Positions 34,481-37,720 of a stretch of DNA of 64,000 nt are shown piece by piece. Source of the stretch: a bacterium (GTDB lineage: Bacteria > UBA8248); NCBI GenBank assembly GCA_965200245.1, contig CBDATS010000005.1, forward strand, positions 736,001 through 800,000, in the 5' to 3' direction. A program made the position numbers and the translations under genes. Below the pieces are notes generated by a model. That model saw only the letters and a list, made by a program, of their open reading frames with translations. It was not told the DNA's origin and searched no databases. The first letter of the stretch is position 1. Every line of letters starts with the position of its first letter.

Positions 34481-35989
34481 ATGCCGAATGCTACAGAAAA
34501 GTACGATGTCGTCGTCGTAGGTTGCGGTAATGCCGCCCTTTGCGCATCGCTTGCAGCTCGAGATCAAGGAGCGAAAGCGTTGGTGCTCGAAAAAGCGCCC
34601 GAAGCGTGGCGGGGCGGGAATTCAGCGTTTTCGGGAGGACTTTTCCGCTTCGCCTTCCATAGCATCGAAGACATCTACTCGCTCGTGCCCGATCTTTCAG
34701 ATGCAGAGAAAGAAAATATCGAGATCGACCCCTACACATCTGAAAAATTCTTCGACGATCTGGCCATGCTGACCGAATACCAGACCGATGGAGATCTGGC
34801 TTCCGTTCTGATCCACGAGTCGTTTCCAACCCTGAAATGGATGCAGTCAAAAGGCCTGCGGCTCATTCTCGCGAGCGGTCGACAGGCATTCAAGGTAGAC
34901 GGCAAGATGCGTTTCTGGGGAGGGTTGGTTCTCGAGATCGTCGGTGGTGGCCGGGGGCTTATCGACTCACTCCTCGACGCTGCAAACAACGCCGGCGTCG
35001 AGATTCGCTATGCATCGAAGGCTATGCGACTTATCACCGACCCAATGGGCACTGTGACGGGCGTCGAAGTTAAAGGCCCCGATGGACCCTATATAGTCGA
35101 AACCCACGGGGTCGTTCTGGCATCAGGCGGGTTCGAGGCAAACGCCGAGATGCGCTGCCGCTACCTCGGGCCGGGGTGGGAACTCGCAAAGGTCCGTGGT
35201 ACCCCATACAACACGGGGGACGGCATCAAAATGGCGCTCGATATCGGAGCGCAACCCTACGGCAACTGGAGCGGCTGTCACGCCGTCGCCTGGGATTTGA
35301 ACGCTCCCCCCTTCGGCGACCTCACGGTAGGAGAATCCTACCAAAAACATTCCTATCCGTTCGGTATCATCGTGAACATCGAGGGCAAACGTTTCGTGGA
35401 TGAGGGCGCCGATTTCAGAAACTACACCTACGCAAAATATGGCAGGAACATCCTGCAGCAGCCTCAACGAGCCGCTTTCCAGATATTCGATCAGAAAACG
35501 GTGCACATGCTGCGCGACGAATACCGCATCCGCGAAATCACCAAGGCCGAGGCCAACACGCTAGAAGAACTCGCGAGGCAACTGGAGATCGATGTGGACG
35601 TGTTTGCCAAAACCATTCAGGAATACAATGCCGCCGTTCAGCCGGGCGAATACAATCCGACTATCAAGGACGGCAAACGAACGAAGGGCATCGACCCCCC
35701 GAAATCGAACTGGGCACTTCCCATCGATGAGCCGCCCTATCTCGGTTTCGCTGTCACGACTGGCATAACATTTACCTTCGGCGGCATCCGCGTGACACCC
35801 AAAGCAGAGGTCATGAACACGGAAAACGAGGTCATCCCCGGTCTGTTCGCTGCGGGAGAACTCGTGGGCGGCGTCTACTATTTCAACTACCCGGGAGGAG
35901 CAGGGCTTACCCTAGGTTCCGTATATGGACGGCTGGCAGGTACCGCAGCAGGGCAGCGTGCTGCCGAAGCAAACGCGGCCTCCGCGTAA
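34481..35989 (+). CDS. FAD-dependent tricarballylate dehydrogenase TcuA-like flavoprotein
   Basis: VVGCGNAA, RGGNS, ASGGFEAN, VRGTPYNTGDG, RFVDEGAD, GITFTFGG and NYPGG motifs. Substrate not established. Confidence 0.82.
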   Translation: MPNATEKYDVVVVGCGNAALCASLAARDQGAKALVLEKAPEAWRGGNSAFSGGLFRFAFHSIEDIYSLVPDLSDAEKENIEIDPYTSEKFFDDLAMLTEYQTDGDLASVLIHESFPTLKWMQSKGLRLILASGRQAFKVDGKMRFWGGLVLEIVGGGRGLIDSLLDAANNAGVEIRYASKAMRLITDPMGTVTGVEVKGPDGPYIVETHGVVLASGGFEANAEMRCRYLGPGWELAKVRGTPYNTGDGIKMALDIGAQPYGNWSGCHAVAWDLNAPPFGDLTVGESYQKHSYPFGIIVNIEGKRFVDEGADFRNYTYAKYGRNILQQPQRAAFQIFDQKTVHMLRDEYRIREITKAEANTLEELARQLEIDVDVFAKTIQEYNAAVQPGEYNPTIKDGKRTKGIDPPKSNWALPIDEPPYLGFAVTTGITFTFGGIRVTPKAEVMNTENEVIPGLFAAGELVGGVYYFNYPGGAGLTLGSVYGRLAGTAAGQRAAEANAASA

Positions 35990-36085
35990 TTCTCCTGTCT
36001 CAGTAGCGAGAAAAGGCTCCCTTCGAACTTAAGTTATACAGCAACTGGAATCCGGGGTGTCGATGCCTGTTTTCAGGCATGAATA

Positions 36086-36664
36086 TCATTCCGTAACACC
36101 GCTCAAGGAGACCGATTCGCCATTCAGGCTCACTGAACTCTTCAGGGGAACAGCGGCCGTCACCATTTGTTCGGCGAAGCATCCTTGCTTCGCGTTCTTG
36201 ATGACAGCCAGAATTTTCTCTGCCGGTTCATCTGATTCCACCTCGAAGTGCGTGCGGACTTCGTTGCAGCCGGAATTCACCGTGCCCTTTAGAACGGAAC
36301 CCCGCAGAAAATAATCGAAATCCACGTGCACTTTCGCATGTGTAAAGGACACTTTCATCATATGCGCGTACCGCGCAAGCTGGGTGAGGAGTCAGAATCC
36401 CACTCCCATCGCGATATAGCAAAGCGGCTGTGGATGGGAATCCTCACCACCGATACGTGGCGGTTCGTCGCAATACACCTCGAAGTGTCTGTGTGTCCCC
36501 AGCTTGAGTTGACCTTTTCCTTCAATCGTTTCGGTGTCGGCGGACATGGTGAAGGCATAGCCCTGCGCGGGGAGTTCCGGCTTGTCGATGGCACGTTCAC
36601 CAGGAACGACGCTGTCTTTACGCGGATCGAGAGGTTCCACTTGTCTTGTCTCCTTTGGTGTCAT
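36086..36664 (-). CDS. OsmC/Ohr-like peroxidase-family protein, probable selenoprotein (UGA at 36392-36394)
   Basis: ORFs 36392-36664 and 36086-36361 are in one frame: DEPPRIGGEDSHPQPLCYIAMGVGF-(TGA)-LLTQLARYAHMMK...AKQGCFAEQ. Confidence 0.85.
36363..36377 (-). promoter_or_regulatory. Bacterial SECIS-like hairpin
   Basis: mRNA UGA-CUCCUCACCCAGCU-UGCGCG-GUA-CGCGCA: perfect 6-bp stem after a 14-nt spacer, with G first in the loop. Confidence 0.65.
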
Positions 36665-36760
36665 AAGAATGGCGGTAGAAAAACGCTATTATGCATGCAA
36701 GGGTGACGAAAGAAAATCACCTCGGCAATCATTCTCTGATGATCTCAAAGGGGCTATTCC

Positions 36761-37720
36761 GTGAACCGAATCGTAGTACCAGATGATTACCCTTCCGTTT
36801 TCACTGGTAGCAGCGCAGAGGATCGCCTACGGGAAATCGGCGATGCGGAAATACATACCTCGAACCCGCAAACGTCCGAAGAACTCATGAGACGTGTCTC
36901 AAGAGCCGATGGAATCATCAACATCCGGGCTTTTTGCAAGTTCGATGCGGAATTTTTCGCGAACTGTGAAGGTCTCAAGATACTTTCGATCTGGGGAACA
37001 GGCACGGACCATGTCGACTTGGGGGCGGCCGACCGCGCAGGTGTCATCGTATCAAACACGCCGGGTGTGGCCGCCGTTTCGGTAGCAGAGCACACCCTGG
37101 CCTTGATGATGGCTGTGGCGCGCCAGATTCCCGGAAACGATTCCGCCACGCGTGCGGGCGACTGGCCCCGGGGACAGATGAAACAATTGAACGGGAAAAC
37201 GCTTGGCCTCATCGGCTTGGGCGCCATCGGACGTCAAACGGCCCGCATCGCTGCCGGCATCGGTATGAAACTCATCGCCTGGACGTTTCACCCGGACAAA
37301 TATTTCGCTGAAGAGTTAGGACTCGAGTTTGTTGACTTGAACCTTTTGTATGAACGGGCCGACATCGTCTCAATACACGTGCGCCAATCACCAGACACTG
37401 TCGGAATGATTGGTGCGGAAGCTTTCTCCCGCATGGGGCCGAACACAATTCTGGTCAACACTGCACGGGGGCCCGTCGTAGATGAAGACGCGCTTGTTTC
37501 AGCTTTGGAAAATGGAACCCTGGCTGCAGCGGGTCTCGACGTGTTCGACCAGGAACCCTTGCCCGCGAATCATCCGCTTGGAAAACTGGAAAACGTGGTT
37601 CTCTCCCCGCACAATGCGGGCATCACACCCGAAGTGACCGAAGCAGGCCTTCTGATGTCAGTGGAAAATGTCGCCGCTGCCCTATCGGGCAACCCACAAA
37701 ACGTGGTGTATTCACCATGA
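36761..37720 (+). CDS. D-2-hydroxyacid dehydrogenase (phosphoglycerate dehydrogenase-like)
   Basis: SVAEH, GLIGLGAIG, NTARG, LDVFDQEP and SPHNA motifs. Confidence 0.88.
   Translation: MNRIVVPDDYPSVFTGSSAEDRLREIGDAEIHTSNPQTSEELMRRVSRADGIINIRAFCKFDAEFFANCEGLKILSIWGTGTDHVDLGAADRAGVIVSNTPGVAAVSVAEHTLALMMAVARQIPGNDSATRAGDWPRGQMKQLNGKTLGLIGLGAIGRQTARIAAGIGMKLIAWTFHPDKYFAEELGLEFVDLNLLYERADIVSIHVRQSPDTVGMIGAEAFSRMGPNTILVNTARGPVVDEDALVSALENGTLAAAGLDVFDQEPLPANHPLGKLENVVLSPHNAGITPEVTEAGLLMSVENVAAALSGNPQNVVYSP

Follow-up and report, generated by a model that had tools for sequence, protein, structure and literature searches.

A probable OsmC-like selenoprotein gene with an in-frame UGA and a SECIS-type hairpin in a bacterium of the UBA8248 lineage

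Described OsmC-like selenoproteins and the gene in the window

OsmC-like selenoproteins were described in the selenoproteome of the Sargasso Sea by Zhang, Fomenko and Gladyshev in 2005, with UxxT as their redox motif and under COG1765 (PMC1088965, in the part that deals with this family), and they are listed again in the corresponding sections of two reviews of prokaryotic selenoproteomes, from 2022 (PMC9312934) and 2026 (PMC13188914). The family also has a curated NCBIfam model, NF041052, named 'OsmC-related (seleno)protein' (OsmC_like_Se). Metagenome-assembled genomes (MAGs) of Nitrospinota, with 48-54 selenoproteins, appear among the richest bacteria in the relevant part of the BSepDB paper (PMC13326102). 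The gene studied here is located in a window of 64,000 nucleotides from a bacterial genome of the UBA8248 lineage (contig CBDATS010000005.1, positions 736,001 to 800,000), and it is a member of this already known family, with a published motif (UxxT, here U-L-L-T) and a published mechanism of recoding. The original prediction had itself stated that this type of recoding was not new, in agreement with the curated model and with what the 2005 paper says on the family (PMC1088965).

When compared with NF041052, the protein matches nearly end to end and with no difference of substance, apart from around 40 extra N-terminal residues that are common to other members. It shares with the Sargasso Sea family the Sec motif UxxT and, 3' of it, a SECIS whose apical G is conserved, and both appear to be the same subfamily with the same hairpin, as judged from the motif and the COG and Pfam labels given in the family section of that paper (PMC1088965). 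The present copies come from MAGs with titles that name Nitrospinota and relatives. With the OsmC/Ohr thiol peroxidases (PF02566; 1vla, 1n2f, 1zb9, 6ebc) it has in common the fold, the position of residue 91 at the helix Cys and a second conserved Cys near the C-terminus, whereas it would carry Sec in place of Cys, its identity to them is just 11-22%, and the cut-off of the Ohr equivalog is not reached. Instead of being grouped with the biochemically characterised OsmC or Ohr proteins, the family is placed under COG1765/YhfA in the passages on it of the 2005 and 2022 papers (PMC1088965, PMC9312934). Finally, as in bacterial SECIS elements of the E. coli fdhF type, the hairpin sits inside the coding region, just 3' of the UGA, and has a G as the first base of the loop; unlike them, this copy has a 3-nt loop, lacks a bulged U and has no match to an Rfam model. 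The fdhF element is longer than the 6-bp hairpin found here, and it was used for the comparison together with the bSECISearch criteria as general background.

As shown in Table 1, the gene lies on the minus strand. In the ORF list and its translations it appears as two open reading frames of 90 aa (36392..36664) and 91 aa (36086..36361), which are in the same frame and are separated by a single TGA. The codons that join them are GGA GTG GGA TTC TGA CTC CTC ACC CAG CTT GCG CGG TAC GCG CAT ATG, and translation of 36664..36089 with TGA as U produced a 192-residue protein in which U is residue 91 (IAMGVGF-U-LLTQLARYAHMMK). Each sequence detail on which the original prediction was built was present: the single frame of 192 aa with U at residue 91, the motifs at both sides of the UGA (CDEPPRIGGEDSHPQP before it and AKQGCFAEQ after it, the second Cys being residue 162), and a perfect stem with a G-first loop after a spacer of 14 nt.

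Table 1. Location of the features of the gene within the window, with the strand and the evidence or position noted for each.
Feature	Position	Strand	Evidence or remark
Predicted OsmC-like selenoprotein CDS, 192 codons from ATG 36664	36086..36664	-	Reading frame, NF041052 and Pfam OsmC matches
Terminal stop TGA of the gene	36086-36088	-	
In-frame UGA, codon 91, first residue of the U-L-L-T (UxxT) motif	36392..36394	-	Conserved TGA; Cys codons in some homologs
Thr94 codon ACC of the UxxT motif	36383..36385	-	Invariant in 29/29 proteins; column 17 is C in 114/115 DNA contexts
Cys162 codon TGC, in AKQGCFAEQ, proposed resolving Cys	36179..36181	-	Invariant in 29/29 aligned family members
SECIS-type hairpin, 6-bp stem UGCGCG/CGCGCA, loop GUA with G first	36363..36377	-	14 nt after the UGA
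Alternative start GTG, codon 9	36640-36638	-	9 nt past AAGGAG (36655-36650)
7-bp perfect inverted repeat ATGCCTG-N4-CAGGCAT between convergent gene ends	36063-36080	.	5 nt past the terminal TGA

Translation would start either at the ATG or at the GTG of codon 9, giving rise to a product of 192 or 184 residues, respectively. In an alignment of 29 rows of the family, the ATG is retained in the four closest rows, and distant rows place their Met near V9.

The gene is alone on its own strand. It is convergent with a gene for a FAD_binding_2 flavoprotein (502 aa, 34481-35989, plus strand), and a D-2-hydroxyacid dehydrogenase gene (36761-37720, plus strand) is divergent from it. The inverted repeat that separates the convergent genes may terminate transcription in both directions. 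Its helix has a centroid energy of -9.7 kcal/mol and a minimum of -10.5 kcal/mol with two added outer pairs, values that are not significant (z = -1.09), and, as the repeat has no T-run, it was not called in the terminator scan. It is not SECIS-like either, as its loop on the minus strand is AAAA. The scan for promoters and terminators at the gene detected one promoter-like site inside it, on the wrong strand, and a pair of terminator-like sites, neither of which belongs to it. When the whole window was scanned crudely for pairs of same-frame ORFs split by one TGA, 72 candidates came out, a noisy set made mostly of adjacent genes and non-coding frames.

Fold and possible chemistry of the protein

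The gene product has the OsmC fold and belongs to the curated family NF041052. The read-through protein matches this model with 180.8 bits (cut-off 95), with model positions 2-144 of 144 aligned to residues 40-182 of the protein, and the same gene scored 172.6 bits in a six-frame search of the genome. Pfam OsmC (PF02566) was also matched, at residues 73-175, with 48.6 bits against a gathering threshold of 27.5. By contrast, the score with the Ohr equivalog NF052637 was 14.7 bits, far from its cut-off of 240, and for this reason filing the protein as Ohr was rejected.

An AlphaFold2 model built from the 29-row alignment, which contains 24 Sec forms and 5 Cys forms, had a mean pLDDT of 91.8. In a Foldseek search of this model against the PDB, the best matches were all OsmC/Ohr proteins with probability 1.00, headed by 2onf (E = 9e-10) and followed by 6mjn, 3eer, 1lql, 1vla, 1n2f and 1zb9. 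In the model, U91 lies within a long helix (residues 80-102), and C162 separates helices 148-161 and 163-169. When the sequence was aligned to solved structures, directly and by profile, U91 fell on the conserved Cys of 3cje, 2opl, 1vla, 9wo1 and 2onf, and C162 matched the second Cys in 3cje and in 2onf, so the proposal that the UGA occupies the position of the catalytic Cys, with a second Cys further on, agrees with the first and second conserved Cys of solved OsmC proteins. Within the family, the U/C column, L93, T94, Q95 and C162 are invariant in the 29 rows, and U91-L-L-T94 corresponds to the UxxT pattern.

The NF041052 match is preceded by an N-terminal extension of around 40 residues (window positions 36551-36664, minus strand), conserved as PLDPRKDS..PGER.IDKPELP.QGY and common to the Sec forms of MAGs that carry the labels Nitrospinota and Betaproteobacteria. 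In the AlphaFold2 model it shows pLDDT values of about 87-89 and little regular secondary structure.

By analogy with the family to which it belongs, we consider moderately probable that the protein acts as a hydroperoxide reductase (peroxidase), with Sec91 as the peroxidatic residue and Cys162 as the resolving one. In this mechanism, the selenolate of Sec91, in the first long helix and within U-x-x-T, would attack a hydroperoxide, or an oxidised substrate akin to it. The selenenic acid formed at Sec91 would be resolved by the invariant Cys162 to give a selenenylsulfide, which a lipoyl- or thioredoxin-type thiol reductant would reduce in turn; both the resolving role of Cys162 and the identity of the reductant are what we infer for this cycle.

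It is also possible, if rather unlikely, that this is a real OsmC-fold selenoprotein with an activity other than hydroperoxide reduction, being either a thiol/selenol-disulfide oxidoreductase or a protein that handles sulfur or selenium. The name under which the family is filed, COG1765 (YhfA) 'Predicted redox protein, OsmC-like', in the entries devoted to it in the reviews (PMC1088965, PMC9312934) would be in line with such a role. The same can be said of the low score with the Ohr equivalog (14.7 against 240), of the nearest solved relatives (3cje, 2opl and 2onf), which were deposited as 'OsmC-like protein', 'Hypothetical protein' or 'putative', and of the conserved extension of around 40 residues outside the NF041052 match. 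By contrast, the fold and the two-Cys (Sec/Cys) geometry are those of the OsmC/Ohr peroxidases, and the replacement of a peroxidatic Cys by Sec is typical of peroxide-reducing selenoenzymes, both of which speak for the peroxidase.

The in-frame UGA and the hairpin downstream

The conservation of the UGA was analysed by tblastn. The codon aligned to residue 91 was TGA in all of the 136 HSPs that cover this column, which correspond to 133 loci: 4 NF041052 matches from the genome of the window, 29 from relatives, 80 from genome contigs and 20 from fetched regions. As many loci were fetched by two routes, and some hold two tandem genes, the 136 HSPs are reduced to 97 distinct contexts of 57 nt. 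The titles of the MAGs to which the genome-contig loci with TGA belong name Nitrospinota/Nitrospinaceae, Candidatus Tectomicrobia and Betaproteobacteria/Burkholderiales, with a few other labels that could be due to mis-binning. In a six-frame search of 61 genomes (that of the window and 60 others, from the same genus to the same domain), the NF041052 cut-off was passed in 43. In all 22 genomes of the same genus, a match with exactly one TGA scored 167 bits or more, and exactly one internal TGA was also found in each of the matches listed for the 61 genomes, besides which there are 161 further matches.

Forms with Cys at this column were also detected, in five near-full-length database proteins and in a metagenome scan seeded with these proteins, where the codon was TGA in 36 loci, TGC in five and TGT in one (42 loci), a ratio that is biased as a frequency because one of the two scan patterns spelled Cys. 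In the 29-row alignment, both halves of the protein are conserved across the TGA.

The hairpin listed in Table 1 has its apical loop at 20 nt from the UGA, and its energy was -7.8 kcal/mol alone (15 nt) and -8.6 kcal/mol in a 24-nt context. Single-sequence folding of a 71-nt context was no better than that of shuffled sequences (z = 0.32, with 118 of 200 shuffles as good), and the 15-nt hairpin taken alone gave z = -3.05 (4 of 200 shuffles as good). Having in mind that a single sequence is not striking, it is the comparison among copies, with its conserved TGA and its covariation, that indicates that the hairpin is more than chance. A scan of positions 35900-36900 against Rfam with E values up to 10 did not detect any SECIS family, the best matches being unrelated miRNA and HTH-XRE models with E > 1.

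In the 97 distinct contexts, the six pairs of the stem were standard in 96.7% of the cells, compared with 89.8% after shuffling of the columns, and compensatory double changes were found in three of the six pairs (28 cells), with C-G changed to A-U, G-C or G-U, G-C to A-U, and U-A to G-C as examples. None of 500 shuffles reached the covariation score observed, a control that overstates the significance because the rows of the alignment are kin to one another; in another control, sliding the 3' partner by 1-3 columns made pairing fall to 5-76%. The same helix was obtained independently with RNAalifold, which added two invariant outer pairs (CA/UG) and thus extended the element to 36359-36382.

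The stem overlaps the codons of a conserved peptide, A-R-Y-A-H, and constraint on the protein thus accounts for some of its conservation. The 13-nt core of the hairpin, GCGCGGUACGCGC, which doubles as the codons of A-R-Y-A, is almost invariant in copies from MAGs of different phyla. Some of the compensating changes tie a non-synonymous site to a synonymous third position elsewhere (e.g., GAG/GGG at Ala with GCU). When the contexts from metagenomes were pooled, the 115 distinct Sec contexts had all six pairs in 95 cases, five in 19 and four in one, in contrast to the four distinct Cys contexts, which keep only two or three of the six pairs, one of them in spite of retaining the peptide R-Y-A. 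Regarding third codon positions, column 27 of the element was G in 115/115 and column 30, the first base of the loop, was G in 114/115, compared with majorities of just 58-78% in the 14-nt spacer. Taken together, third positions that are nearly fixed and a hairpin tied to the TGA forms constitute the mark of a constraint at the RNA level, this is, the sequence signature expected of a SECIS.

Decoding of the UGA, gene copies and annotation

The machinery for selenocysteine was searched for in the genome of the window (15 contigs, 3.68 Mb, completeness 95.84, contamination 8.11). Both selA (572.7 bits) and selB (391.9 bits) scored above their cut-offs. They are located on the same contig, around 1 kb apart and with selB downstream, and their frames (485 and 641 aa, respectively) are open and without internal stops. 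The match for selD (338.6 bits, G000:C8:72779-73741, minus strand), also above the cut-off, contains one in-frame TGA, and SelD is probably a selenoprotein itself in this genome. A single tRNA-Sec was detected, with 75.9 bits against a gathering threshold of 47 and the anticodon tca (ARAGORN).

With these data, the observation made in the original prediction is confirmed, and its interpretation as a recoded selenoprotein is supported: the column of residue 91 holds TGA or Cys codons and nothing else, the hairpin covaries in the Sec forms and is absent from the Cys forms, and selA, selB, selD and tRNA-Sec are all found in the genome. On the evidence of sequences, UGA-91 almost certainly encodes selenocysteine, and the gene would be that of a selenoprotein. 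For this, the hairpin would act as a bacterial SECIS that recruits the complex of SelB, GTP and Sec-tRNA(Sec) to the ribosome, in such a way that the UGA would be read as Sec and not as a stop; the insertion of selenium at the UGA and the binding of SelB to the hairpin are both parts of this proposal. Since the stop of the gene itself is also TGA, decoding as Sec must depend on context. The whole picture, in which an OsmC-fold protein of NF041052 has its UGA-91 decoded as Sec by means of the SECIS hairpin, is highly probable in our opinion, with the Sec91/Cys162 chemistry proposed as its less certain, moderately probable part.

Two other explanations of the UGA were weighed. The UGA could be read in another way and without SelB-dependent Sec, either through a general reassignment of TGA to Trp or Gly or through near-cognate read-through with Cys or Trp. 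Genetic codes in which TGA is a sense codon exist in some bacteria, and nothing specific favours one here. A general reassignment is unlikely because the gene ends in TGA, the frames of selA (485 aa) and selB (641 aa) have no internal stops and the homologs that lack the TGA have Cys at the column, neither Trp nor Gly; as the hairpin is, in addition, tied to the TGA forms, we regard these alternative decodings as very improbable. The split of the gene by plain gene calling into ORFs of 90 and 91 aa, and the 208 short halves in public databases, could also suggest a pseudogene or a sequencing or assembly error, in which case the TGA would result from a nonsense mutation or from an erroneous base call and nothing but fragments, if any product, would be made, but a TGA at the same column in 136/136 HSPs (97 distinct contexts, MAGs of several phyla), with both protein halves conserved across the break, excludes such a mutation or base-call error, and the covariation of the hairpin and the presence of the Sec machinery also stand against it, which leaves it with a practically negligible probability.

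The genome of the window contains two more paralogs of the family (G000:C5:487357-487782, plus strand, and G000:C4:527382-527783, minus strand), with 158.9 and 153.3 bits, respectively, each of them with one TGA and with the same hairpin with small variations. Several copies, some of them in tandem, are also found in relatives, for example two genes in each of L031, L082 and G028:C4. A fourth and more distant gene of the OsmC type is present in the same genome (G000:C4:424722-425117; locus L029, around 1438-1929, plus strand), whose score with NF041052 was 60.8 bits, under the cut-off of 95. It has an in-frame TGA at the position of the helix Cys (AGHAG-U-GLYTL), the classical second Cys in NCPIHN, and a 7-bp hairpin (CGCUGCU-GGG-AGCAGCG) 10 nt past the TGA, and to judge from these features it probably represents a second kind of OsmC-like selenoprotein.

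Such a number of Sec paralogs per genome (three above the cut-off and a distant fourth one here, with higher numbers, at times as tandem copies, in some relatives), together with the near-invariant 13-nt core and the N-terminal extension, could be taken as a specialised module for selenium-dependent detoxification, repeatedly duplicated or transferred, with a substrate or partner unlike those of classical OsmC/Ohr, an idea that we put forward as doubtful.

The prediction that standard annotation would miss the gene was right for plain gene callers, as the protein database contains 208 matching half-length proteins (30-104 aa, mostly 83-92 aa) and just 6 near-full-length ones; a pipeline that uses NF041052 would be expected to recognise the gene. 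Some of the half-length proteins are encoded on contigs of 2-3 Mb, and they are named 'hypothetical protein', 'OsmC family protein' or 'uncharacterized OsmC-like protein'. Another outcome of gene calling is the NCBI 'hypothetical protein' P0004 from a Nitrospinaceae MAG (180 aa), a chimera across a tandem pair of these OsmC-like genes. It opens immediately after the Sec codon of one gene, takes in the C-terminal part of that gene and the spacer, and continues through the N-terminal part of the following copy to end immediately before its Sec codon.

In terms of annotation, the 90-aa and 91-aa ORFs are to be merged as one selenoprotein gene, in a family that public calls commonly split. The gene raises no new question, as the family, the motif and the mechanism of recoding are in print and in a curated model. 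What it would provide is one more redox selenoenzyme for a lineage listed among the bacteria richest in selenoproteins in the pertinent part of the BSepDB paper (PMC13326102).
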